From an uncultured virus (IMG/VR IMGVR_UViG_3300033150_001690) (lineage: Duplodnaviria; Heunggongvirae; Uroviricota; Caudoviricetes), in the IMG/VR virus record IMGVR_UViG_3300033150_001690: a DNA stretch of 20,000 nt. One strand, given 5' to 3'. Below are positions 3,542-18,335 of the stretch, piece by piece. The notes under the pieces were generated by a model. It did no database searches. It was not told where the DNA came from and saw only the letters and a program-made list of their open reading frames with translations. Within the stretch, counting starts at the first letter, position 1, and every line of letters starts with the position of its first letter. The translations under genes were made by a program, and so were the position numbers.

Positions 3542-3696
3542 TAGAAAATCTCGTTGTAATTGGAATGATCGGAGAAATAGTGAAGTTATTAGGATATCTT
3601 ATATTAGAAGAACATGGAAATGAAAGAATAACTTCATGGGGATGTTCTCTGTTTTCTTCTGGTGTTAGCAGGTCTATTTCTCTAAAGGAGGTATGA
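3538..3696 (+). CDS. 52-aa protein with hydrophobic N-terminus (MIENLVVIGMIGEIVKLLGYLIL...)
   Basis: Translated by hand; TTG after AAGGAGG; fills the gap exactly. Confidence 0.6.
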   Translation: MIENLVVIGMIGEIVKLLGYLILEEHGNERITSWGCSLFSSGVSRSISLKEV

Positions 3697-4097
3697 ACTT
3701 GCTTATTCTTCAGAAGTTTAGTTGTCCTAACTGTAGATACTTCTATAGAGTATTGTCTGAGGTCTATACTGATAAACAAAAGGAGGTCTTAGAGACACAG
3801 GAGGTATCCTGTCCTAGATGTAATACTAGAATGAATCTTATTACTGAAGAAGTATCAGACATCTTCTCTTCAGTTAAAGATGGAGAAAACATTAGAATAT
3901 ATCTCTTTGGAGATGAAATAGTGAATATCTCTCCTGAAGAGATTAGAGTTAATTTAGGTAATTTGATCTTCAATGGATTTAATGGTCTTGTTTCTATTGA
4001 ATATTCTCTAAATAATATTGTTTCTTTAGAGGTCTTTCCTGACTCTCAAAGTTATGCATTTTTCAAGAAGAAGAACAAAAAGAAATTAGGAGAATAG
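3693..4097 (+). CDS. Zn-ribbon protein
   Basis: CPNC...CPRC; RBS spacing favours TTG 3699 as start. Confidence 0.75.
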   Translation: MNLLILQKFSCPNCRYFYRVLSEVYTDKQKEVLETQEVSCPRCNTRMNLITEEVSDIFSSVKDGENIRIYLFGDEIVNISPEEIRVNLGNLIFNGFNGLVSIEYSLNNIVSLEVFPDSQSYAFFKKKNKKKLGE

Positions 4098-4100
4098 AAC

Positions 4101-4445
4101 ATGTCTAAGAATTGGAAGAGAAGATTTAAGAGACTTCATAAACGATTTATAAAAGAAATGACCAGTATTCTAGAGTCTTCTAAGCTTCTAAGTGAAGAGA
4201 AACTTCTACAAGTAATTGGGACCTGGAATTTAGATCTATCTGAGGTCTACAATTTTCTAGTAAGTGAAGAGAAGAAGAAAAAGAGATTAACAGAAGGAGT
4301 TAAAGAGGCTAAGAATAATAAACAAGAGTCTTCTAATAACGAAGAACTGAAGAGGGCAACTTCTACTTCATCTTATTATGGATACTCCTATGTTGTATAT
4401 CCTTCCACTAAGAAAATAAGTGAAGTGGAGAAGGATTTAGATTGA
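4101..4445 (+). CDS. hypothetical protein, basic N-terminus, S/T/Y-rich C-terminal part
   Basis: ORF track; AGGAG RBS. Confidence 0.75.
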   Translation: MSKNWKRRFKRLHKRFIKEMTSILESSKLLSEEKLLQVIGTWNLDLSEVYNFLVSEEKKKKRLTEGVKEAKNNKQESSNNEELKRATSTSSYYGYSYVVYPSTKKISEVEKDLD

Positions 4446-4627
4446 GTAAGATAGAAGAATTAAAAAAATATGTTCTTCAGTTGAGAAATAAAACAATAAC
4501 TGATAAAGAGATCGCCCAAGTAATGAAATTAATTAATGAAGCATTAGACGAAACATATACTTCAGGTTATAGTCAAGGATCTTATGAAGGATACGAAGAA
4601 GGATACCATGCTAGATATGAGAGTTAG
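4442..4627 (+). CDS. small protein with C-terminal GxxxG repeats
   Basis: YTSGYSQGSYEGYEEGY; coupled TTGA start. Confidence 0.7.
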   Translation: MSKIEELKKYVLQLRNKTITDKEIAQVMKLINEALDETYTSGYSQGSYEGYEEGYHARYES

Positions 4628-4719: not shown

Positions 4720-5616
4720 ATGACGATTTATATTCTAACTAATGTGACCTCTTCATTATATAATAAACCTACAGGTCTAAAACTAGCAGAACTAGGAGGG
4801 TTTACTCCAATTAGACCTAGTGACCTGGTCAACCTTCATCCTGAGAGAGGAGATGTATTAATACGATATGGTATTTCTTCTTATCCCAATAAAGACCTAG
4901 AGTTTACCATAGGTTGGGTCTTTAATAAAGCAGATGATATCAGGAAGGCTTCTAATAAACTAATAGCTTCTAGAATCATGTATACTCATTCTATTGATAC
5001 TCCTAAGATATGGACCAACAAAGATCTAATAACAGAAGATGATCTTCCTGTTTTAGGAAGAGATCAGTATCATTCCAGAGGATCTGATATTGTCTTCATA
5101 GATACCATGGAGAAGTTAAGAAGAAGTCATAAAGACTATTACTCCAAATTTATACCTTCAATAGCAGAGTATAGACTTCATGTGTTTAAAGGAGAGCCAA
5201 TTAGATTAAGTAAGAAGATCCCTACTGAAGAAGAGAGTATTATTCATAACTTTGAGAATGGCTATAGATTTATGGATAGATGGGGGAGAGAAGAGGGAGA
5301 TCTAGAACTAGAAACTAATGTAGTAATACCTGCTGGTCTAAGGGCTATAGAGGTCTTTAACTTAGATTTTGGAGCAGTTGATATTCTAATATCTGAAGGG
5401 AAAACTCCATATATATTGGAGGTTAATACTGCTCCTAGATTAAATAAATATGGAAGACAATTATATGTTTACTACTTCAGGTCTAAGTGTATGAGTGAAG
5501 ATGATGACCCAGGGAAGTATGCTTATACTAATTATTCTAGATTAAGATTAAATGAAGGACCACTAAGTAATGGTCTACCTATAACGTTTAGAGATATTGT
5601 AAAAAGAAGGAGGTGA
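4720..5616 (+). CDS. ATP-grasp amide/peptide ligase (RimK/LysX-like fold)
   Basis: N...ASNK, LPVLGR, EYRLHVF, LDFGAVDIL and YILEVNTAP motifs, including the metal-binding D and ExN. Confidence 0.9.
   Translation: MTIYILTNVTSSLYNKPTGLKLAELGGFTPIRPSDLVNLHPERGDVLIRYGISSYPNKDLEFTIGWVFNKADDIRKASNKLIASRIMYTHSIDTPKIWTNKDLITEDDLPVLGRDQYHSRGSDIVFIDTMEKLRRSHKDYYSKFIPSIAEYRLHVFKGEPIRLSKKIPTEEESIIHNFENGYRFMDRWGREEGDLELETNVVIPAGLRAIEVFNLDFGAVDILISEGKTPYILEVNTAPRLNKYGRQLYVYYFRSKCMSEDDDPGKYAYTNYSRLRLNEGPLSNGLPITFRDIVKRRR
4821..4831. repeat. dispersed palindrome TGACCWGGTCA, copy 3
   Basis: TGACCTGGTCA, read as D-L-V in the ATP-grasp gene. Confidence 0.9.
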
Positions 5617-5620
5617 AGAA

Positions 5621-5809
5621 TTGGAAGAAGAAGACATGAAGTTCTTCTTTACATTCTTTCTATTGATTCTTTTATGAATCTTCAACTTATTAGGAGAAGT
5701 ATCTAAACTAACAGAAAATACAGTTCATCAAGTAATTGCTATAATAGGATCAACTATTTGTATTATTGGTCTTGTTCTAGCATACATAGGAGACAGAATA
5801 TTCTCTTAG
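5621..5809 (+). pseudogene. two-helix membrane protein ORF interrupted by in-frame TGA at 5675-5677
   Basis: TTG after GGAGGTGA; MEEEDMKFFFTFFLLILL*IFNLLGEVSKLTENTVHQVIAIIGSTICIIGLVLAYIGDRIFS*. Confidence 0.6.
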
Positions 5810-5816
5810 TCTTCCT

Positions 5817-5858
5817 TCCTTGGAATCCTGAATGAGGAGTACCTCTTCAGGACAAGGA
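5817..5858 (+). promoter_or_regulatory. intergenic hairpin overlapping the RBS of the next gene
   Basis: TCCTTG-gaa-TCCTGAA-t-GAGG-agta-CCTC-TTCAGGA-CAAGGA (17 bp, two bulges). Confidence 0.65.
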
Positions 5859-5873
5859 GAGTGAAGAAGAAAT

Positions 5874-6080
5874 ATGAAAATATATTGTAAAATAGAAGAT
5901 GTTTCTATGGATCCAGAAGGGAATATAGTGTTGTTCTTTAGTAAAGAAAAAGAGACAACTAGAGAAGTTACAATATCTTTATTGAAGAATTGGATAGGTC
6001 AAGAAGTTATTATCACAATATCTCCTTTGGTAAGAAGACATGACCAGGTCACGGAGGATATAGGAATTGAAGGTGTATAA
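5874..6080 (+). CDS. small beta-rich hypothetical protein
   Basis: ORF track; overlaps the start of the ligase gene. Confidence 0.7.
   Translation: MKIYCKIEDVSMDPEGNIVLFFSKEKETTREVTISLLKNWIGQEVIITISPLVRRHDQVTEDIGIEGV
6041..6051. repeat. dispersed palindrome TGACCWGGTCA, copy 4
   Basis: TGACCAGGTCA, read as D-Q-V; just upstream of the ligase RBS. Confidence 0.9.
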
Positions 6081-7428
6081 ACAAGGAGTAGAACTAGAAG
6101 GATTTGTAGTAGAAGAAGATGCTACACCACTAGTGAAGGATCATAATCTCCATGCTGAAATGACCGATCTCTTCAAACATCGAATCTTTAATAGATATTA
6201 CTACGATGATAGTAAGCCAGAGTTTCCTTCTAATCCATATAAATCTGTAGGAGGTCTAGCTAATCATCTTTCTTCAGTGATATCTGGAGCAACAGATCTA
6301 GCTAAGAGTAAGAATGTAAACTATATATTAACAGGATGCTTCCCATTCTGGCAGGACTTCGCTTCAGGTCATATCCACACATCTCTAGTAGATATGAAGG
6401 AAGATGCCTGGAAGGAGATGAAGAGGAAGTTATATAACGCACAACCTATGATAGCTCTTCTATCTGCTAATTCTCCACTAATGAAGGGAGTGTTTAAAGC
6501 TAGTGATGTTAGACTCTCCTTCTCTTCTTGGAGTAGATTTACTGATTATGATAGAGATACTTCTGATCACTATATGGCATTAGCCAAAGGAGAAGGAGGA
6601 GCTACTCTGGAGTGTAGAATACCTTCTTCATCTTCTCTATATCAGATACTTGGTATAGCAATATTCATTAGAATATTGTTAGAAGACGAAGATACTACTC
6701 TTCCTATATTCTATACTAGAGAGATCTTTGATAGGGTAACTAAATATGGATCAGAAACACTAGTTCCTGTTGGTCTTCCTAAAGGAGTGACCTATCACGG
6801 AGTAAAACTGAAGAAGGCACATGTTAGAATAACTGATCTATGGAGGTTGTACTATAAAGAAAACTATGATCTCTTCAAGGAGAAGTTATCAAACTGTAAG
6901 CCTAGAATTCAGGAAGGAGTATTTAAGTTCTACGATCTTATAGCAAATGGTCTAACAGTATCTGATCTTGTATTGGATTATTGGAACTCTCTTCGTAATA
7001 AAGGAGATATTGTTAAAACATTACAACGTTTAACAGAAGATACCTATAACTATAAATCTACTATACAGGACATTCTTCCTATTCCTAAGAGGAAGTATAT
7101 TCCTCCTCTTCCAAAGAGAATGACTATTGAAGAGTTTAAGGAGTTAGTTAATAGTCTTCAAGTGAAAGAACTAACACCCGTTGAAGTAGATGATATATTG
7201 AAGTTGATCTTTAGCACTCGTATAAGGACTTTTGAAATGTTTAAAGTTATATCAGACATATCTTCTCAGGGGTATTCTATTGCAAGATTACATAGAGATC
7301 TTCTTAGAGAACTAAAATCCTTCGATATTATTAAAGAGAAGAGAAATCCTGATAGAGTAATTATTCCAGGGAAGAACTTCCCAATATTTGTTCAACTATT
7401 AGAGGAGAGTGAGTTATTTAACCAATGA
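6067..7428 (+). CDS. COOH-NH2 ligase, glutamate-cysteine ligase family 2 (GCS2/YbdK-like, glutamine-synthetase fold), with C-terminal extension
   Basis: GVELEG, EFPSNP, GHIHTS, ALLSANSP and LECRIP motifs in the canonical order. Confidence 0.85.
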   Translation: MKVYKQGVELEGFVVEEDATPLVKDHNLHAEMTDLFKHRIFNRYYYDDSKPEFPSNPYKSVGGLANHLSSVISGATDLAKSKNVNYILTGCFPFWQDFASGHIHTSLVDMKEDAWKEMKRKLYNAQPMIALLSANSPLMKGVFKASDVRLSFSSWSRFTDYDRDTSDHYMALAKGEGGATLECRIPSSSSLYQILGIAIFIRILLEDEDTTLPIFYTREIFDRVTKYGSETLVPVGLPKGVTYHGVKLKKAHVRITDLWRLYYKENYDLFKEKLSNCKPRIQEGVFKFYDLIANGLTVSDLVLDYWNSLRNKGDIVKTLQRLTEDTYNYKSTIQDILPIPKRKYIPPLPKRMTIEEFKELVNSLQVKELTPVEVDDILKLIFSTRIRTFEMFKVISDISSQGYSIARLHRDLLRELKSFDIIKEKRNPDRVIIPGKNFPIFVQLLEESELFNQ

Positions 7429-8417
7429 TCTCTCTTAAAGATCTTACGGAAGCTATTAGAGAAGTAAACAAATCACCATTTCCTACTGAAGTAATCTATC
7501 CAGGATCTAAGAAAGCTCCTATTCTTCTAACAGATTCATTACTAAGCACTAAGGTCTTGGGATATCTTCTAGGGAAAAATACTGAGAGACCTGTATTAAA
7601 AAGTATTGAAGTTCCTAATGTTTCTAATCGCTTGTTTATAGGAACTCATACTACCAGAAGATATGGAGTATCAGTATATTCTAATGATCTTAGAATAACT
7701 GTTCTTCTAAGTAAAGCGTTTAAGAAGAATGGAGTGAAACTCATTCCAGATACAGGTCATCATGAATATGGTCCAAAATTCTTTACTTATCTTTTCATAG
7801 GAGAAAGTTTCTTCTATTCACTAGATAAGCTAAACAGGGTGTTTGAAATACTAGTGAAGTTCTTCAAAGATCTATTGTTTGAAGACAGTCTTCCTGGGAA
7901 GTGTAGGTTTTGTGGAAATAATTCGTTGGTCTACCCTAATGATTTGTGTCAGTATCATCTGAAGCATGTTCCATTTCAGGAGTTAAAGAACTTCTATAAC
8001 ACATTGAAGATGGATACTTCTCTTGTAGGTATGTTAAAATCAGATGAAGAAGTAAATAGAATACTAATGGGTCTAAAGAAGTTTACATGGAAGACTAAGA
8101 AAGAAGTAGAGAAGTGTATAGATTGTGGGAAGTCTCTAGAATGGAATATGGGAATGCATGATGTTTGTTTATGTTATTCCTGTGATAAGAAGTATGACTG
8201 GTCTTTCTTCAGGACAGATTATTATAATGGTCTGGTCTTATGGAAAGACTTCAATTCTGATCCTAAGATAAGAAAGAGATATTTGAGAAGAAATATAGGA
8301 AGACAATCTTCTAATTCACATCTTCTGACTTATTCATCCTTCTCTCAACCTGTTTATTATATTAGAGAAGGGACTTCTCTTACTTCTACTATTTGGTCTT
8401 CTTCAACTTCAACGTAA
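7425..8417 (+). CDS. uncharacterised protein of the ligase cluster with two Cys-rich Zn-binding motifs and an S/T-rich tail
   Basis: CRFC...CQYH and CIDC...CLCYSC; ATGA-coupled to the ligase. Confidence 0.8.
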   Translation: MISLKDLTEAIREVNKSPFPTEVIYPGSKKAPILLTDSLLSTKVLGYLLGKNTERPVLKSIEVPNVSNRLFIGTHTTRRYGVSVYSNDLRITVLLSKAFKKNGVKLIPDTGHHEYGPKFFTYLFIGESFFYSLDKLNRVFEILVKFFKDLLFEDSLPGKCRFCGNNSLVYPNDLCQYHLKHVPFQELKNFYNTLKMDTSLVGMLKSDEEVNRILMGLKKFTWKTKKEVEKCIDCGKSLEWNMGMHDVCLCYSCDKKYDWSFFRTDYYNGLVLWKDFNSDPKIRKRYLRRNIGRQSSNSHLLTYSSFSQPVYYIREGTSLTSTIWSSSTST

Positions 8418-8429
8418 GGAGGATAAAGA

Positions 8430-9605
8430 ATGTGTGGTATAACCTCGTGTTATAATGTAGAAAATGCTTCAGAGACCATTCTAAACATGATACTAGCACA
8501 AGACCATAGAGGTAAAGATGCTACAGGAATAGCCTTCATAGAGAATGGAGAAATAAAGATCCATAAGAAAGCACTATCTCCAGAAGTATATGTTAAACGG
8601 TTTGGAGATAATATTAAGAAAACAGTGAAGTCTTCAATTATAATAGGTCATAACAGAGCAGCTTCTAGCAACTATAAGGAGAAGGATCAAGATAAAGAAG
8701 CACATCCATTTATAGCAGAAGATGGATCATTTGCTTTAGTCCACAATGGAACTCTAGGGTATAGATATGAGATCTTAGATACTTTTCTAGATCTGATAGG
8801 TCATAAACGATCTTCTGGAGTAGACACTGAGATATTTGTTCATATATTAGAAGAACTTCTTCAGAAATATCCTAGAGAAGAAGCTATGAAGAGATTCTAT
8901 ACTATCTCTGATGGCAATATATTAATACTCTTCAAAGATGGAGTATTATATGGAATACCTAATGGATCCTTCTATCTTCTAAAAGGAGACAATTGTGTAT
9001 ATATTGCTTCTGAACCAGGGACCTTTAAAGTTCTTCTAAATAAGAATATCAAGGAAGACCTTAAGATTCTTAAACCTAAGAAAGAAGGAACAATGGTCAA
9101 ACTATGGAAGGAAGGTGACCAGGTCAAGGTCCATATTTGGGGAGAGTGGGAAGAGATACCGTTTAAGATAGGAGACTGGGTCTACAATAGAACAACTTCC
9201 TGTGACTTCTGTGATAGAACAGGAGTTCCATGTGAATCGTTTATTCCTAAAGGGTCTAAGAAGGCATATGATAGATGTTTAGAGTGCTATAAGAAGGGAG
9301 TGACCAAGCCAAGGTATACTACTACTTCTTCTACTACACTATATCCTTCATATAGAAGAAGGGAGACATTATGGGGATATCAGTATCAATCTCCTTCTTC
9401 TCCAATAAAAGAAATAGCAGAGACTAAAAAGAAGGAGAAGAAGGATAATACTGGAGTAGCTATGTGTGCTGTTTGTAAGAAGCCTATACCACTAAATAAA
9501 GTGATCTACTGCACTAGATGTGGAAGATTCTTCTGTGAAGAACACTTCAAAGACCATAAATGTGCAGAGGTGAAGGACACCTTCTACTGGTCTTATGTTT
9601 ATTAG
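8430..9605 (+). CDS. class II (Ntn) glutamine amidotransferase with C-terminal Zn-finger domains
   Basis: N-terminal MCGI, HRGKDATG, GHNRAAS, AHPF, HNGTL, VDTE; CDFC...CLEC and AN1-like CAVC-x11-CTRC-x4-CEEH-x3-HKC. Confidence 0.92.
   Translation: MCGITSCYNVENASETILNMILAQDHRGKDATGIAFIENGEIKIHKKALSPEVYVKRFGDNIKKTVKSSIIIGHNRAASSNYKEKDQDKEAHPFIAEDGSFALVHNGTLGYRYEILDTFLDLIGHKRSSGVDTEIFVHILEELLQKYPREEAMKRFYTISDGNILILFKDGVLYGIPNGSFYLLKGDNCVYIASEPGTFKVLLNKNIKEDLKILKPKKEGTMVKLWKEGDQVKVHIWGEWEEIPFKIGDWVYNRTTSCDFCDRTGVPCESFIPKGSKKAYDRCLECYKKGVTKPRYTTTSSTTLYPSYRRRETLWGYQYQSPSSPIKEIAETKKKEKKDNTGVAMCAVCKKPIPLNKVIYCTRCGRFFCEEHFKDHKCAEVKDTFYWSYVY
9116..9126. repeat. dispersed palindrome TGACCWGGTCA, copy 5
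   Basis: TGACCAGGTCA, read as D-Q-V in the amidotransferase. Confidence 0.9.
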
Positions 9606-9611
9606 GAGAAG

Positions 9612-10553
9612 ATGAGTATGAAATATTTGGTTAATCTTCGTTCTACATTCTCTTCAGGATATTATGGAGACTTCAGGGATTATTTAATAGAACAATGGAG
9701 TAAGAACTACCCTTCAGCTTATATCAGAGGAGATAAGATCCAGTTCATGGAAGACAACTTTATAGTGGAGAATAAAGCAGTATATCCTGAGAATTGTGTT
9801 ATCTTCAACAACTATGCTCATAGTGCGGATTACTTAGAAGTAATAAAAGATCTAGGATATGTAGTAGATGTCTATCCTTCTTCTGTAGATCTAGCAGATA
9901 ACAAGTATGCTCTAATGAAGCATTTGGGATATTACTTCATAGTCCCTAGACTTCTGATCAACTCTTCTTCAAAAGGAGACTATGTTTTAGGATATCATTC
10001 TTCAGGTCTGTCAATTAAGAGTAAAGAAGATATTTGGAGTTCTGGAGAAAATTTAATAGGAGATCTAAATTGGAATGAAGACATTCTTCCTTTGGTAGAT
10101 GTCTATACCTTCTTAGGATATTCGGTAAATTACTGTTATTTGTTCCTTCAGAAGAATGGGAGTCTAATAGTTTCTTCTACTCAAAACAACATTAAACGCT
10201 TAGAACGCTTCAGTAGATATCGTGGTAATCAGTATGATCTTGAAGGTCCAAATAAGAAAGAGAAGGAATTAGTGAAGTTATTCTTCCAAGAAATAGACAT
10301 TGATACAGATGAAGTAGAAGATATGGCAGAAGAAGTATCTTCATTATTAATGTTGGGATCAGGTGAAGTATTAATAGCTCCATTTGAAGAGAATATAGTA
10401 GTAGATGTGATCTATACACACTTTCCACTCTTCCGCTTCTTTCTCCGAGAGAAGGCATATAGACAATTCATGTACTTCTTTACTAGAAGAATCTTAGAAG
10501 AGAACTCCTCTCCATGGTCTGCTAGAAAGAGAATATTTCAAATAGAGGAGTAA
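9612..10553 (+). CDS. divergent, probably inactive ATP-grasp-fold protein
   Basis: PSSVDLADNKYALMKHL...VPRLLI and MAEEVSSLLMLGSGEVLI...IVVDVIYTHFP follow the RimK layout, but the conserved D and ExN are missing. Confidence 0.55.
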   Translation: MSMKYLVNLRSTFSSGYYGDFRDYLIEQWSKNYPSAYIRGDKIQFMEDNFIVENKAVYPENCVIFNNYAHSADYLEVIKDLGYVVDVYPSSVDLADNKYALMKHLGYYFIVPRLLINSSSKGDYVLGYHSSGLSIKSKEDIWSSGENLIGDLNWNEDILPLVDVYTFLGYSVNYCYLFLQKNGSLIVSSTQNNIKRLERFSRYRGNQYDLEGPNKKEKELVKLFFQEIDIDTDEVEDMAEEVSSLLMLGSGEVLIAPFEENIVVDVIYTHFPLFRFFLREKAYRQFMYFFTRRILEENSSPWSARKRIFQIEE

Positions 10554-10559
10554 TCAAAA

Positions 10560-10934
10560 ATGGTTAAATGCAGGACCTGTAGATGGAGAGTAAAAGTTAA
10601 TCAGGATACATACTATTGTAATGCTAGAGGACTTCTTCTTAGAGAGGAAGAAATGGATGAACTTAGATATTGTGCTTCTTATGATCCTTCTCCTTTCAGT
10701 GACATAGAACAGCAACTATATAACTATCTTCTGGAGATAGGAACAGGAGTAGCTATTGCTTCTCTTCCTCCTAGATGGAGAGGAGCGATAACTAAGTTGA
10801 AGAGACTAGGAATAGTAGACACTTATTTTGAATGGGTCAGAGTATCCTCTAGACCAAATATAGAAGAAGGAGAATCTTTTAGTTATAAAAGAGTAAAAAT
10901 GATCAAATTAAATGAGGATGGTTATTACTTATGA
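10560..10934 (+). CDS. Cys-cluster plus putative winged-helix protein
   Basis: CRTC...C...C N-terminus; LYNYLL...GAITKLKRLGIV resembles wHTH. Confidence 0.6.
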   Translation: MVKCRTCRWRVKVNQDTYYCNARGLLLREEEMDELRYCASYDPSPFSDIEQQLYNYLLEIGTGVAIASLPPRWRGAITKLKRLGIVDTYFEWVRVSSRPNIEEGESFSYKRVKMIKLNEDGYYL

Positions 10935-11668
10935 AGTATAGATGTGAGAAGCATAAGACCAATGAAGGATTTTATGATTCTGAAGGTAAGTGGCATTGTT
11001 GGAAGTGTTATAAAGAGAATGAATTCTTCAATCCTCCCGGAGATATTATAGACACTTATACTAAAGGAGATTATCAGATCAGAGTATTGGCTACCGATCC
11101 ACATACTACATGTGTTGAAGTATGGGATGTAGAGAAGAAGAAGTTGATCAAGAGAAACTTCTATAGTTATTTGTCAACAGCTATGAGGGCATTTAGAAGA
11201 GAAAGAAACCATTTAGGAGAACATTCTTCTAGAGAACGTTTAAGATCATCATTAGGACAGGGAGAAATTCGTATTCCTAGAATTAGATCTCTTGAAGACG
11301 ACATGAGGGGATTTGAAGAAGATTTTGATAATGGAGGGTGTTATTTAGGAAGACTAGATGAACTTGGATTTGTTGGTGAAGGACCAATAAGTAGGTATGT
11401 GATCTATAAAGAAGATATTAATGATGTTAATCTAGCTAGAAGATTTACTGATTGTTTCTTTGTTCTCTGTAGATTTAGTAGAGACGTCTTAAGAGTATTA
11501 AGAGAGAGTTCTAATCGCTTCTATATGTGTATTGTTTGGAGTGGAGGAGATGATATAGCGTTTGTAGATAGTTCTAACTTGGGAAGAATAGAGAGATCAA
11601 TTCAACATTGTATAGGTGCTTCTCTTACTGTAAGAAGAGGAGTTTATATTTATCCTGACAGGAGGTGA
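10931..11668 (+). CDS. hypothetical protein with N-terminal Zn-binding motif
   Basis: CEKH...CWKC; ATGA-coupled. Confidence 0.75.
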   Translation: MKYRCEKHKTNEGFYDSEGKWHCWKCYKENEFFNPPGDIIDTYTKGDYQIRVLATDPHTTCVEVWDVEKKKLIKRNFYSYLSTAMRAFRRERNHLGEHSSRERLRSSLGQGEIRIPRIRSLEDDMRGFEEDFDNGGCYLGRLDELGFVGEGPISRYVIYKEDINDVNLARRFTDCFFVLCRFSRDVLRVLRESSNRFYMCIVWSGGDDIAFVDSSNLGRIERSIQHCIGASLTVRRGVYIYPDRR

Positions 11669-11696
11669 TATCATAGAGAGAATATCTCCTGATCCC

Positions 11697-12023
11697 ATGT
11701 CGGGAGATGATGATATATTAGAAGAAAATAAGGAGATAAATAAGAAAATAGAAGATATACTGAAGGAGATAGACAAAAGAGACCTATCCTCTAAAGAGAT
11801 CATGTACCTGGTGGTCATGATCTTAGAGAAGGAGTTCAATACACCTAGACCTAATATAGATGTAGATAGAAGGTGGAAGTCATTCTTCTTAGTAGTGGAT
11901 AAGATACTGTCTAGACACTTCACTGGTCTAGGAGCATTGTCATTTATTGCTAGTCTAGGAGAGAATCTTCTAAGGAGACATCCTGAATTAGCTACTAGAG
12001 AAAGAGATAATGGAGTTGTATGA
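11697..12023 (+). CDS. helical hypothetical protein
   Basis: ORF track; in-frame ATA 11673 after GGAGGTGA may be the true start. Confidence 0.75.
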   Translation: MSGDDDILEENKEINKKIEDILKEIDKRDLSSKEIMYLVVMILEKEFNTPRPNIDVDRRWKSFFLVVDKILSRHFTGLGALSFIASLGENLLRRHPELATRERDNGVV

Positions 12024-12063
12024 TATTGGACACATCTTCAGAAGGACTACATTGTTTATCACA

Positions 12064-12077
12064 GAAACCTTTTATTT
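12064..12077 (+). promoter_or_regulatory. possible archaeal BRE/TATA promoter
   Basis: GAAACC-TTTTATTT in the gap upstream of the AbrB-like/ATPase genes. Confidence 0.3.
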
Positions 12078-12132
12078 CTCATTATTTTCTAAATATAGCC
12101 ATTAAACTAAAGACAGGAAATAGAGCATCAAT

Positions 12133-12143
12133 TGACCAGGTCA
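12133..12143. repeat. dispersed palindrome TGACCWGGTCA, copy 6
   Basis: TGACCAGGTCA in the 12024-12190 gap, followed by clustered GACC/GGTC half-sites. Confidence 0.9.
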
Positions 12144-12190
12144 TCTTTCTTCAGACTTGGTAAGACCAAAATAATTGGTCAAAATTGGCC

Positions 12191-12379
12191 ATGACCAAAG
12201 AAGATTTAAATACTATTAAAGCAATTATCTCTAAAGAAGGTATTCTAATGAAGCTATTAAGACTTAAGAAGGGAGAAGCAGCATATCTCTCTATACCTGA
12301 AGAATGCACTATAAGCACTCAAGCCTGTTCTGTAAAGAATAGTAAGGGAGAGAAACTTATTCTAATAAGGGTCTTATAA
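12191..12379 (+). CDS. small protein, possibly an AbrB/MazE-like swapped-hairpin DNA-binding protein
   Basis: KLLRLKKGEAAYLSIPEE resembles the AbrB 'k-G-s-x-x-tIP-e' motif; ATG 12191 or TTG 12185. Confidence 0.45.
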   Translation: MTKEDLNTIKAIISKEGILMKLLRLKKGEAAYLSIPEECTISTQACSVKNSKGEKLILIRVL

Positions 12380-12380
12380 A

Positions 12381-13100
12381 ATGGAGACAGGTCCCTTAGT
12401 AAATAAAGAGTTCTATAACTACATTCTCCCTTCTAAGAGAGTAATCAAGTATTCTCCTAGAGTAAAGTATCCAACTAACAATGTTATCTTCAGAAATATT
12501 GTTCTATATGGCTATCAAGGATCAGGTAAGACCTCTTCAGTTAGAAGAATAGTCTATGAAGCAGTGAAGAAATATGGTCAAAGTAATGTTAATGCTAGAA
12601 TGAGTGAAGATGGTGATCTAGGGGCATTACTTAGATGGGGTCTAAGACCTGTTTTAGTAAATATTCTATTTAGTGATAACACCACATTAAGAAAGATCCC
12701 TAGAGAAGAACTAATGAGATACTTTAGGATAAGACACATTTATAGAGAGAGATTTGGTCTAGACAATGGATATATATTGAGTTTAATAGCTCTTCATAGA
12801 TTTCATAGTATTCCTCCAGAACTTAGAACTACCATAGATGGTCTATTGATCAAAGACTCTTCTATGAATCCATATGATAGATCAGTGTTGAAGAGATTCA
12901 TAGGAGAAGACAATTTACGTCTTTTAGAGACCCTAAGTATAGAGAGGGAGAGATATCCAGACCTGAAGAGTATAGGGATTTTTGTAGGCAGGACATTCTC
13001 CGGTCTGGTCTCTCTCCCTCTCCCTAGGAAAGATTTTTTAAGACCCGTATATTCAACCGAAGAGATAGTGATGGATCTGAAAAGGATCCTGAACATATAA
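12381..13100 (+). CDS. P-loop ATPase, FtsK/HerA superfamily-like (A32/Zot-type layout)
   Basis: Walker A GYQGSGKT, Walker B-like ILFSDN, LIALHRFHSIPPELRTTID resembling the hhhQ...IP..R motif. Confidence 0.7.
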   Translation: METGPLVNKEFYNYILPSKRVIKYSPRVKYPTNNVIFRNIVLYGYQGSGKTSSVRRIVYEAVKKYGQSNVNARMSEDGDLGALLRWGLRPVLVNILFSDNTTLRKIPREELMRYFRIRHIYRERFGLDNGYILSLIALHRFHSIPPELRTTIDGLLIKDSSMNPYDRSVLKRFIGEDNLRLLETLSIERERYPDLKSIGIFVGRTFSGLVSLPLPRKDFLRPVYSTEEIVMDLKRILNI

Positions 13101-13124: not shown

Positions 13125-13265
13125 ATGTTTGAACCGATCTATGACTTCCTGTACAATGTAGGTCTGGGTCTAGTATGGTTTGGAACAGGTCTAGGTCTGG
13201 CAGGATTAATGGCTGGAGCAGTTAAGGCTCTGAATTGGATCTCAGAGAAAGTCTTTAGCAAATAG
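13125..13265 (+). CDS. 46-aa Gly-rich single-pass membrane protein MFEPIYDFLYNVGLGLVWFGTGLGLAGLMAGAVKALNWISEKVFSK
   Basis: Translated by hand; GAGGTGA RBS; acidic N-terminus, hydrophobic core, basic amphipathic C-terminus. Confidence 0.8.
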   Translation: MFEPIYDFLYNVGLGLVWFGTGLGLAGLMAGAVKALNWISEKVFSK

Positions 13266-14695: not shown

Positions 14696-15376
14696 GTGAA
14701 GAAGTTGAGTGACCAGGTCATCTCTTCATTTATACTCATTGACGTCCATGAGCCTGAAATTATCAAGATAAAGATCAAAGAACTAGGAGTACCATTTCAG
14801 GTCAGACCATTAGAAGTAGGAGACTATATTGTAGATAGAGTAATAATAGAAAGAAAGGAGATACATGATCTCTTCTCTAGTTTAACTTCAGGGAGATTAT
14901 GGAATCAACTTTATAAAATAAAGGAGACAGGTCTTAAAGGATATCTTGTTGTAATAGGAGAGATCCCTACATGGGATTATAGAAGAAAGAGACCTGTCTC
15001 TAAAAAGAAGTATCAATATTACTTCTCTACTCTAAGAAACATTAGAAGAATAGCATATCTCTCCTATGGAGTAGGATTTGAACATCTAAAGACCACAGAA
15101 GACTTCTTTCAATTTATAGTAGATGTGTGGAACAAAACAGGAAGGAAGGTCTCTTATGCTCCTGTGTTGAAGAAGGGAAGTGACCTGGTCACTATAAAAT
15201 CTAATATATTATCTTGTATACCTGGAATAGGAAGAAAGATAGCAGATGAACTAGCTAAAAAGTATAAGATTAGTGATCTGGTCACTCTTCCAATTAATGA
15301 ATTATCTAACGTAAAAATTAGAGGAAAGAAGTTAAGGTCTAGGGCTAATAAGATTAAGTGGGCATTAACAAGTTAG
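14696..15376 (+). CDS. ERCC4-domain (XPF/Mus81/Hef-type) structure-specific endonuclease with HhH
   Basis: IDVHE, LEVGDY, IERKxxxD, GRLWNQL; HhH LSCIPGIGRKIA. Confidence 0.92.
   Translation: MKKLSDQVISSFILIDVHEPEIIKIKIKELGVPFQVRPLEVGDYIVDRVIIERKEIHDLFSSLTSGRLWNQLYKIKETGLKGYLVVIGEIPTWDYRRKRPVSKKKYQYYFSTLRNIRRIAYLSYGVGFEHLKTTEDFFQFIVDVWNKTGRKVSYAPVLKKGSDLVTIKSNILSCIPGIGRKIADELAKKYKISDLVTLPINELSNVKIRGKKLRSRANKIKWALTS
14710..14720. repeat. dispersed palindrome TGACCWGGTCA, copy 8
   Basis: TGACCAGGTCA, read as D-Q-V. Confidence 0.9.
15181..15191. repeat. dispersed palindrome TGACCWGGTCA, copy 9
   Basis: AGTGACCTGGTCACT (15-bp symmetry), D-L-V; one-mismatch copy TGATCTGGTCA at 15274-15284. Confidence 0.9.
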
Positions 15377-17351: not shown

Positions 17352-18335
17352 TTGGATTTTGTTAGTATAGCAAATCATTTTCATAGACCGACTGATCTAT
17401 ATTCTAAACTAAAGAAACTAGAACCTTTTAGTCTCTCTTTTCACACAGACGCTGATGGGATTTATAGTGCTTCTCTACTGATGTCAGTGTTTCAGGTTAA
17501 AGAAGTAAAATGTCCTCCATTTAATGAGTATGAGACCCAAGTAGCAGTTGATCTTGGATATCCTAAGAAGAAGGACTGGTCAGGGGTAATAATAGACCAT
17601 CATTGGCTAGACTATCCTGAAGGAGTACTAAAGAATCCCAAGATAACCTGTGTATTAGATATTTGTCCTACAGGTCTGATTATATGGAAACATTTGAAGA
17701 ATTATATTCCTAAGAAGGACTGGTGGAAAGTAGTAGGATCTCTTACTGGAGATGGTCAACCTGAACTAGTACCAGATGAAATATGGGATGAATTTCCTAT
17801 ATTATTAGAAGAGAGAGGAGTATTAGGGAGAGGTCAATATAAAATATGGACCTCAGCATTTCCATTATTCTATTATCTATCTTCAGGAGTTAATGCTATA
17901 GCTAGACTAGGATTTCCTCTTCAGGCCTTAGATATTGTTAATCAAGCAGAAGGACCTTTAGATATTCTAGATCATCCCGAAGTAATAGACGCTGTTCAAA
18001 GAGTGAAGTCTGAAGAAGATAACATCTATAAGAGTAGACCTGTAGTGGAGACCATTAGAAATAGATATGTTATTATTAGAATAAAGACCAGTTCTCCAGC
18101 TATTAGTATGGCAGGTCTAATAGCTTCTAAGGTCTCTAACAATAACCCTGGTAAGACTATTATAGTTATGAATGAAAGTAATGGAGAGGTCAGTATTAGA
18201 GGAGTACAGGCCAGGTATGTTGCTAATAAATTAAATGCTTCAGGTTTTAAAGCAGGAGGTCATGCAGGTTTCTGTGGTAGTCATTTTGAAGAAGACGAGA
18301 TAGAAGACTTCATGCAGACTTTAAGGAAGTTGTAA
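17352..18335 (+). CDS. DHH/DHHA1 family phosphoesterase (RecJ/NrnA-like nuclease)
   Basis: HTDADG, VDLG, IIDHH, SIRG and GGH motifs. Confidence 0.9.
   Translation: MDFVSIANHFHRPTDLYSKLKKLEPFSLSFHTDADGIYSASLLMSVFQVKEVKCPPFNEYETQVAVDLGYPKKKDWSGVIIDHHWLDYPEGVLKNPKITCVLDICPTGLIIWKHLKNYIPKKDWWKVVGSLTGDGQPELVPDEIWDEFPILLEERGVLGRGQYKIWTSAFPLFYYLSSGVNAIARLGFPLQALDIVNQAEGPLDILDHPEVIDAVQRVKSEEDNIYKSRPVVETIRNRYVIIRIKTSSPAISMAGLIASKVSNNNPGKTIIVMNESNGEVSIRGVQARYVANKLNASGFKAGGHAGFCGSHFEEDEIEDFMQTLRKL

Follow-up and report, generated by a model that had tools for sequence, protein, structure and literature searches.

The 20,000-nt stretch of DNA analysed here (IMG/VR record IMGVR_UViG_3300033150_001690, an uncultured virus), referred to throughout as the window, carries at positions 4720-10553 a cluster of six genes that we read, with a probability of about 0.62, as a lineage-specific, rearranged variant of the "amidoligase" cassette of phiEco32-, LUZ24- and PA11-type phages. 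The kind is not new: it is a known one, still uncharacterised, to which the cluster belongs as a divergent member. Its genes are co-oriented and overlap or nearly abut in the order grasp1-s68-lig-cys-gat-orf6 (Table 1): s68 overlaps the start of lig by 14 nt and lig overlaps cys by 4 nt, the gaps from cys onward are 12, 6 and 6 nt, and 257 nt (5617-5873) separate grasp1 from s68. A preliminary description of this DNA had named five of these genes, all of which are found where it placed them, on the + strand and with the identities that it proposed; the conserved 68-amino-acid (aa) gene s68 was absent from its list. The tight co-oriented packing that it claimed holds from s68 to orf6, with overlaps and gaps of no more than 14 nt. 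It had also called the five the only run of large genes, which they are, without being the only large genes: the window has six open reading frames (ORFs) of at least 290 aa, the sixth of which encodes a RecJ-like DHH/DHHA1 protein beginning at 17352.

The homology to phage cassettes is clearest for grasp1. We find grasp1 homologues in 237 phage records by tblastn, all below 60% identity, a match to phrog_2599 ("ribosomal protein S6 glutaminyl transferase") at E 1.1e-28, and hits of the grasp1 family hidden Markov model (HMM) to ECBP2_0079 (E 1.4e-34) and O4 gp52 (E 4.9e-34). The phiEco32-type amide-ligase cassette has a wide distribution among phages; its ATP-grasp gene alone accounts for these 237 records. 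K80, E150, D221, E234, N236 and R240 are invariant in seven grasp1 orthologues, the last four within the motif region LDFGAVD...ILEVNTAPRLN, and the profile recovers RimK (5zct) from the PDB at E 9.5e-4. The best NCBIfam matches, NF040720 MptN (2.3e-6) and TIGR00768 (3.9e-6), cover only the C-terminal Mg/ATP motif region, with MptN and RimK scores of 26-27 bits against cut-offs of 143-350. RimK, MptN, CofF and LysX each attach an amino acid of the glutamate type to a carboxylate; these families supply the closest solved structure and the closest curated families to grasp1, whereas the window offers no S6, LysW or cofactor context. By its PHROG match and motifs, grasp1 is a predicted RimK-like ATP-grasp protein, not a curated RimK, and we read it as a putatively active ligase.

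The neighbourhoods of grasp1 homologues in unrelated phages point in the same direction. In ECBP2 (phiEco32-like) and O4 (PA11-like), the homologue has COOH.NH2 ligase, amidoligase and glutamine amidotransferase (GATase) genes for neighbours, just 5' of the primase/helicase and DNA polymerase genes, which bears out the tie to phiEco32-type neighbourhoods of ATP-grasp, glutamine synthetase (GS)-fold ligase and class II amidotransferase genes drawn in the preliminary description. The ORF table of UFV-P2, a LUZ24-like phage, places PF14395, PF12224, GATase, ATP-grasp and AIG2/GGCT proteins together (PMC3890496). We then surveyed metagenome-assembled genomes (MAGs), retaining 20 of 21 loci with distant grasp1 homologues (L041, on a Klebsiella chromosome with E 1e-3, was left out) and scanning 141 of the 182 + strand ORFs of at least 170 aa within -6.5/+4.5 kb, nested ORFs having been removed. 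The ATP-grasp gene has both a ligase (PF14395 or PF12224) and a class II GATase beside it on the same strand at 12 of the 20 loci, a ligase at 15 and a GATase at 13; neither is seen at four, three of which are short or truncated contigs and the fourth (L040) a cellular RimK locus. PF12224 occurs at 13/20 loci, Peptidase_C26 at 9/20 and GGACT at 2/20 (L029 and L033), and we conclude that a gamma-glutamyl-cleaving enzyme is frequent in canonical cassettes and not universal. Cassette GATases carry Met-Cys at or near a plausible start in 13 of 15 cases, the annotated ECBP2 and O4 genes being the exceptions.

The second enzyme, lig, belongs to the same superfamily as the canonical ligases. H102 and H104 (HxH) and E182 and R184 (ExR), which belong to the catalytic motifs of the GS fold, are invariant across 18 lig family sequences, the consensus of which also conserves an N-terminal GVELE stretch, and 6 of the 18 match PF04107 GCS2 (best E 2.3e-6). 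In hhalign comparisons, the family aligns with PF14395-type ligases at a probability of 50.8% (E 1.6e-4, 68 columns), with the HxH blocks in register, and with a PF12224-type alignment at 5.2%; the match of lig to TIGR02050 YbdK is weak (E 0.0011, 18 bits vs a cut-off of 176). The protein carries a helical C-terminal extension of ~200 aa. Its relatives are few: 17 among 5.8 billion clustered proteins, none in IMG/VR or GTDB genomes by profile search, and none in the phage collection by tblastn. From these comparisons, lig is predicted to form, with its relatives, a separate small family of the GS/GCS carboxylate-amine ligase superfamily.

Relatives of the element encode up to two further GS-fold ligases beyond the lig orthologue. 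A paralogue ~24% identical to lig is present at L009:4225-5373, L016:7544-8773 and L017:4592-5761; L010:1642-2757 encodes a phiEco32-type ligase (PF14395 52.2 bits, phrog_3815 E 4.9e-40); and L005:4705-5346 scores 29.5 bits on PF14395, at a site corresponding to the 257-nt gap of the window. No copy or remnant of these extra ligases is detected by tblastn in the 20-kb window, 5617-5873 included. The lig orthologue at L005:5535-6878 is open from FKVHKQGIELE and has no ATG, GTG or TTG start at that point, so that it may use an unusual start codon.

The third enzyme, gat, is a class II glutaminase of the N-terminal nucleophile (Ntn) type. It scores 35.8 bits on PF13522 (cut-off 27) and matches the GlmS N-domain at E 1.4e-18 and the PDB structures of GlmS (5.5e-13) and PurF (6.9e-13) over residues 1-154. 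It begins MCGI, with Cys2 in 7 of 8 sequences, and H74, N75, R76, N106, G107 and D132 are invariant in the alignment. Like those of grasp1 and lig, its catalytic motifs are intact. The glutaminase domain is followed by a CDFC...C..C zinc ribbon and, beyond a variable linker, by a zinc finger of the cross-brace (AN1/RING/FYVE-like) type, for which all matches fall below cut-off (FYVE 0.0036, Prok-RING_2 0.01, zf-AN1 0.014). No synthase domain is recognisable in gat, the GlmS isomerase and PurF phosphoribosyltransferase (PRTase) domains being absent, and the match to TIGR03104, a class II amidotransferase family for peptide amides, is weak (5.4e-4).

The cluster ends with a second ATP-grasp fold. 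On its own, orf6 matches no family in Pfam, PHROG or NCBIfam. An exhaustive profile search gave a family of 46 representatives, from which we aligned the window protein with 44, leaving out P0019 (a near-duplicate) and P0062 (642 aa, matching in several stretches). The resulting 45-sequence profile aligns with the grasp1 family at an hhalign probability of 96.5% (E 8.3e-10, 165 columns) and with PurK in the PDB at E 7.9e-5, 5 of the 45 members match PF08443 (RimK), and the closest protein-language-model neighbours of orf6 are viral RimK-like clusters (score 0.95-0.96). The description of the last gene as ATP-grasp-like is thereby upheld at the level of the fold. Across the family, other residues stand in place of the Mg-binding E-x-N motif, and none of the catalytic columns is kept in 55% or more of the members; we conclude that orf6 probably has an ATP-grasp fold without being an active ligase, and that it is probably a scaffold or specificity subunit. 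The AlphaFold2 model of orf6 is poor (predicted local distance difference test, pLDDT, 47.8) and was not used for a fold search.

Two further proteins of the cluster appear to be non-enzymatic partners. In ten cys sequences, C160, C163, C175, C231, C234, C250 and C253 are invariant and form two zinc-ribbon-like clusters, with almost nothing conserved outside the Cys columns. The AlphaFold2 model of cys (pLDDT 69.4, predicted template modelling score 0.72) finds nothing in the PDB with Foldseek at E 0.001 or better (best 0.068) and nothing in BFVD, and an atlas search gave no usable match. With VIA-align, 32 chains reach Z of at least 5 and none reaches 8; nearly all of the top matches (Z 5.0-6.2) are of a zinc-peptidase/amidase fold over residues 1-155, a candidate that we did not accept because the Z values are below the noise level stated for the tool and this domain conserves not one His, Asp or Glu column. 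We consider cys to be probably a non-catalytic adaptor.

A homologue of s68 lies directly 5' of lig at 14 of 18 related loci (blastp); of the other four, three are cut off at that point and the fourth, L016, has instead a small, unrelated ORF rich in Cys. Lys24 is the sole invariant residue in ten s68 sequences, the C-terminus is variable, and neither the PDB nor Pfam holds a relative. A LysW- or Pup-like carrier, acting as carboxylate donor, is excluded by the unconserved C-terminus. With its single invariant lysine, s68 is a candidate partner or acceptor, and a concrete one. The canonical cassettes encode a partner of ~190 aa, to which neither s68 nor cys is similar (hhalign probability 0.3% and 0.1%).

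The cassette was reportedly predicted from genomes by Iyer, Abhiman, Burroughs and Aravind in 2009. That prediction is cited in passages of PMC10580990 and PMC11706807, and our full-text literature search found no experimental identification of the cassette product. Set beside the phiEco32/LUZ24/PA11 cassette, the window cluster shares a clearly homologous RimK-like ATP-grasp (HMM E ~1e-34), a class II Ntn amidotransferase starting MCG (the GATase homology itself being weak), at least one GS-fold carboxylate-amine ligase (that of the window being related at the superfamily level), conserved non-enzymatic partners, tight co-oriented packing, clustering kept across genomes, and a place in the early, nucleic-acid-metabolism part of the virus genome. 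It differs in that its ligase comes from the separate family of 17 relatives with the C-terminal extension, in having the degenerate ATP-grasp orf6 and zinc-finger partners in addition, in partners unrelated to the ~190-aa protein, and in gene order; its neighbours are XPF, RecJ-like and P-loop genes, whereas those of the canonical cassette are primase/helicase and Pol A. The window variant thus amounts to a natural "minimal and rewired" version, with one intact ATP-grasp, one GS-fold ligase, one glutaminase and no gamma-glutamyl hydrolase.

Several results weigh against assigning the cluster to this cassette. The canonical set has PF12224 Amidoligase_2, a PF14395 ligase and often GGCT/AIG2 or C26, and none of these (a PF14395 match above cut-off, PF12224, GGCT/AIG2 or Peptidase_C26) is found among the 43 window ORFs scanned. 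No Pfam family, PF08443 included, matches grasp1 at E 0.01 or better, and its 26.4 bits on TIGR00768 are far below the cut-off of 143.4. The window lig fails PF14395 (16.6 bits vs a cut-off of 25), has no PF04107 match at E 0.01 or better, and as a profile recovers no GS or GCS structure when searched against the PDB with an E limit of 1. Finally, the term "virus" is itself inferred, because no capsid or terminase gene is seen in the DNA that could be read (the window and the fetched loci); the element is uncultured and has a virus-like context (a single coding strand, dense coding, short ORFs, frequent Shine-Dalgarno-like motifs, and strong PHROG matches in its relatives), and a protein of the window is recorded on a contig of ~77 kb.

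Gene order in relatives is a further line of evidence. A metagenome scan gave 18 related loci, and all four that span the region (L005, L009, L016 and L017) have the order o134-grasp1-(second ligase paralogue)-s68-lig-cys-gat-orf6-o124-o245-o108-o239, with identities of 22-65%; in L016, cys and orf6 equivalents are assigned by position and alignment only, and the unrelated Cys-rich ORF replaces s68. Within-lineage synteny alone is weak proof of functional coupling, because these loci are evidently related, collinear genomes and their synteny may reflect mere kinship, which also counts against the assignment; the neighbourhoods in unrelated phages are the stronger evidence of linkage. The preliminary description held that scattered homologues, or placement in housekeeping families of a cellular chromosome, would speak against its reading; homologues are co-located in other genomes, and no cellular or housekeeping genes flank the cluster.

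By analogy with these families, the chemistry is likely to be ATP-driven glutamate-type amide ligation together with glutamine-dependent amidation or trimming. In the scheme that we propose, lig would spend ATP on converting a carboxylate, most probably the glutamate gamma-carboxyl, into an acyl-phosphate, and would join it to an amine acceptor; grasp1 would then add a further L-glutamate-type residue to a free carboxylate of the adduct. Next, gat may deliver glutamine-derived ammonia with which one of the ligases would amidate a carboxylate, as glutamine synthetase does, or may instead trim a gamma-glutamyl amide, as EgtC does; orf6, cys and s68 would serve as non-catalytic scaffold, specificity or acceptor subunits. 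Every step is taken from family chemistry and the order of steps from analogy, a further point to be set against the assignment.

The acceptor is tentatively a protein (viral s68 or a host protein) or, with the same tentative standing, a small amine or peptide metabolite; something else is unlikely, and a nucleotide or DNA is improbable. The conserved non-enzymatic partners and the zinc fingers lean slightly towards a macromolecule, a lean that is weak because zinc ribbons are common throughout the window and that for this reason adds little to our assignment. The targets put forward in the preliminary description (a protein, F420 or pterin tails, a surface polymer) and the roles (host takeover, superinfection exclusion, anti-defence) are speculative.

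Protein tagging, in which the ligases would attach glutamate or a short glutamyl chain by an isopeptide bond to a protein lysine, the translationally coupled s68 serving as their acceptor or carrier while the pseudo-ATP-grasp and the zinc-finger proteins take care of targeting, is a specific outcome that we consider unlikely. Among the relatives of these folds, RimK, LysX/LysW and PafA/Pup act on proteins, and the idea draws on them as well as on the position of s68 just 5' of lig at most related loci and overlapping its start in the window, the invariance of K24, the conserved non-enzymatic partners cys and orf6, and the cross-brace finger of gat (sub-cut-off matches), a type of module that usually mediates protein contacts. 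Against it stand the unconserved C-terminus of s68, by which s68 is not a LysW- or Pup-like carboxylate donor, the unrelated ORF at its place in L016, and the dissimilarity of s68 and cys to the canonical ~190-aa partner. More narrowly, a machine that marks Lys24 of s68 with a glutamyl or amidated glutamyl group, or in which s68 targets a host protein, is decidedly improbable.

We hold a small-molecule product to be similarly doubtful. Here, by the logic of glutathione, lig and grasp1 would build a gamma-glutamyl-amine or a gamma-glutamyl peptide (di- or tripeptide), which the amidotransferase would cap as an amide (AsnO/Ngg-like, as in N-acetylglutaminylglutamine amide), or the gamma-glutamyl group would be a transient protecting group. 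Glutathione is made by GshA/GCS and then the ATP-grasp GshB, and ergothioneine synthesis employs EgtA and EgtC, a GCS2-type ligase and a class II GATase-like amidohydrolase. The pairing of a GCS-type with an ATP-grasp ligase repeats the glutathione pattern, and the cluster shares with both systems the fold pairings and gamma-glutamyl-centred chemistry; the weak TIGR03104 match of gat and the frequent addition of GGACT or Peptidase_C26 to canonical cassettes fit as well. The cluster differs from the two systems in that all curated cut-offs are missed widely, the setting is viral with extra partners, and gat resembles the GlmS/PurF N-domain (PF13522) and not the YafJ/EgtC type (PF13230). Against a small-molecule product, the window has no GGCT, C26 enzyme or transporter, gat has no synthase domain, and a plain metabolite pathway leaves three conserved non-enzymatic proteins unexplained.

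That a nucleotide or a viral DNA base receives an amide derived from an amino acid, which would shield the genome against nucleases of the host, is very improbable. It would accord with the neighbouring P-loop NTPase, XPF/ERCC4 nuclease and RecJ-like DHH protein of the window and with the position of the canonical cassette directly 5' of replication genes, but no hydroxymethylase, DpdA-like transglycosylase or DNA kinase family is present in the window or the loci scanned, and we know of no DNA hypermodification pathway that uses such an enzyme set. That these are ordinary housekeeping genes of a cellular chromosome (a GlmS/PurF-type amidotransferase with glutathione or cofactor ligases) is barely credible and already contradicted: the best names for the gat domain are indeed GlmS and PurF, and L040, one of the distant ATP-grasp homologues, is a cellular RimK with cellular genes around it, but gat lacks the GlmS isomerase and PurF PRTase domains, all scores are far under the equivalog cut-offs, the cluster has no flanking housekeeping genes, its relatives occur only on 17-18 metagenome contigs that carry phage-type genes, and the window has no tRNA or rRNA gene.

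The preliminary description had favoured an archaeal virus, which we do not uphold. No host marker is seen in the DNA that could be read. One lig relative comes from a MAG labelled "Ignisphaera sp.", a 53%-identical XPF relative from one labelled "Chloroflexi bacterium", and the sole match of the XPF gene in the phage collection is Methanobacterium virus PhiF1 (E 1e-5). The Ignisphaera label and the short XPF nuclease are weak hints of an archaeal host, which is not established because the only organism labels, Ignisphaera and Chloroflexi, conflict. We rejected the IVYWREL measure of thermophily, which gave ~95 °C for all window ORFs vs ~52 °C for the 95%-identical locus L003 (enzymes only). 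Canonical cassettes (PF14395/PF12224 ligases, GATase_6 and ATP-grasp) also occur on L023 and L036, in MAGs labelled Woesearchaeota and Bathyarchaeia; L036 additionally encodes a DnaB-like helicase and Pol A, as bacterial podophages typically do, because of which MAG bin labels are poor evidence of host. A cell-wall hypothesis for the cassette, peptidoglycan modification, is quoted in a passage of PMC10580990. If the host is a murein-less (hyperthermophilic) archaeon, that idea would be inapplicable to the window variant, and the acceptor of the cassette family would more likely be something common to bacteria and archaea.

Table 1. Features of the window discussed in the text, with predicted products or other properties.
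Feature	Position	Strand	Description
o134	3693..4097	+	134-aa zinc-ribbon protein; weak zinc-ribbon Pfam matches
grasp1	4720..5616	+	298 aa; predicted RimK-like ATP-grasp ligase, catalytic motifs intact
s68	5874..6080	+	68 aa; candidate partner or acceptor
lig	6067..7428	+	453 aa; predicted GS-fold (GCS2/YbdK-like) carboxylate-amine ligase
cys	7425..8417	+	330 aa, 8 Cys; alpha/beta domain (~residues 1-155), then two Cys4-type zinc ribbons
gat	8430..9605	+	391 aa; stand-alone class II (Ntn) glutaminase domain, ~residues 1-205
orf6	9612..10553	+	313 aa; second ATP-grasp fold, ATP/Mg motifs not conserved
Downstream syntenic genes	10560..13100	+	o124, o245, o108, 64-aa ORF, o239
Short XPF/ERCC4-type nuclease	14696-15376	+	ERCC4+HhH; PF02732 3.7e-16, Hef 2.2e-17
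RecJ-like DHH/DHHA1 protein	17352-18335	+	3' of the cluster
TGACCWGGTCA sites	1100, 2597, 4821, 6041, 9116, 12133, 14328, 14710, 15181, 16881, 18560		11 nt each

The genes flanking the cluster are in part conserved with it. On the 5' side, o134 is kept directly 5' of grasp1, at the equivalent position by blastp, in L005, L006, L009, L010, L017 and L019, and is a candidate member of the module only. The genes at 10560..13100 keep the same order in L005, L009, L016 and L017 (blastp and alignments), so that they are conserved together with the cluster inside the lineage, a putative functional link. Among them, o124 is zinc-binding, o245 has a conserved zinc-binding N-terminal 110 aa, and o239 is a P-loop NTPase with GSGKTS, for which neither the PDB, PHROG nor the phage collection (tblastn) holds a relative; the RecJ-like gene likewise has no tblastn match in the phage collection.

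Relatives of the element carry accessory genes typical of large phages: an RNA ligase (phrog_968, 8e-81), NAMPT (1.7e-150), a Ro/TROVE-type RNA-binding protein (6.9e-49), a QueE-like radical-SAM enzyme, a phosphoesterase and an RlaP-like nucleotidyltransferase. They include an RNA-repair-like set, in which the RNA ligase has an OB domain, and lie near the cassette in the relatives (L009:15084-16109, L016:32-1561, L016:18553-19344, L017:18569-19993, L009:12988-13677 and L009:14491-15012), and none of these genes is in the window.

The window itself has a G+C content of 33% and is ~92% coding, with every plausible gene on the + strand. Its 46 + strand ORFs of at least 50 aa have a median length of 98 aa, and a Shine-Dalgarno-like GGAG, GAGG or AGGA lies 4-18 nt 5' of 30 of the 46 starts vs 20% at random positions. 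Neither sigma-70-type promoters (62 vs 71 +/- 8.9 expected) nor intrinsic terminators (11 vs 8.1 +/- 3.2 expected) are enriched. The window contains no tRNA gene and no Rfam family, rRNA included, and PADLOC families give just two weak matches in it (E 0.003 and 0.006), neither meaningful.

An 11-bp palindrome, TGACCWGGTCA, is the commonest 11-mer of the window, with 11 copies in the 20 kb vs 0.00 expected from 200 shuffles; three lie within the cluster (4821, 6041 and 9116). The nine copies that fall entirely inside a single gene all share one codon phase, GAC-CWG-GTC, which reads D-[L/Q]-V, and of the remaining two, one is intergenic and one spans a gene junction. Among the 41 fetched loci, the palindrome is found only in the 95%-identical L003, at two equivalent places. 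Such a sequence may serve as an operator, bound by a dimeric protein specific to the virus, or may mark places where the DNA is modified or nicked.

The two longest intergenic gaps, 5678-5809 and 13125-13265, contain short hydrophobic frames that resemble small membrane peptides, both below the 50-aa ORF cut-off; the first reads ...VIAIIGSTICIIGLVLAYIG... and has no canonical start codon, and the second reads MFEPIYDFLYNVGLGLVWFGTGLGLAGLMAG... Lastly, the same 12-nt tandem repeat (GAAGAAGGATAT-like) is present at 1152-1204 and 4565-4617, in two unrelated small ORFs (1017-1331 and 4442-4627), where it encodes G-Y-E-E-type repeats near the C-termini.

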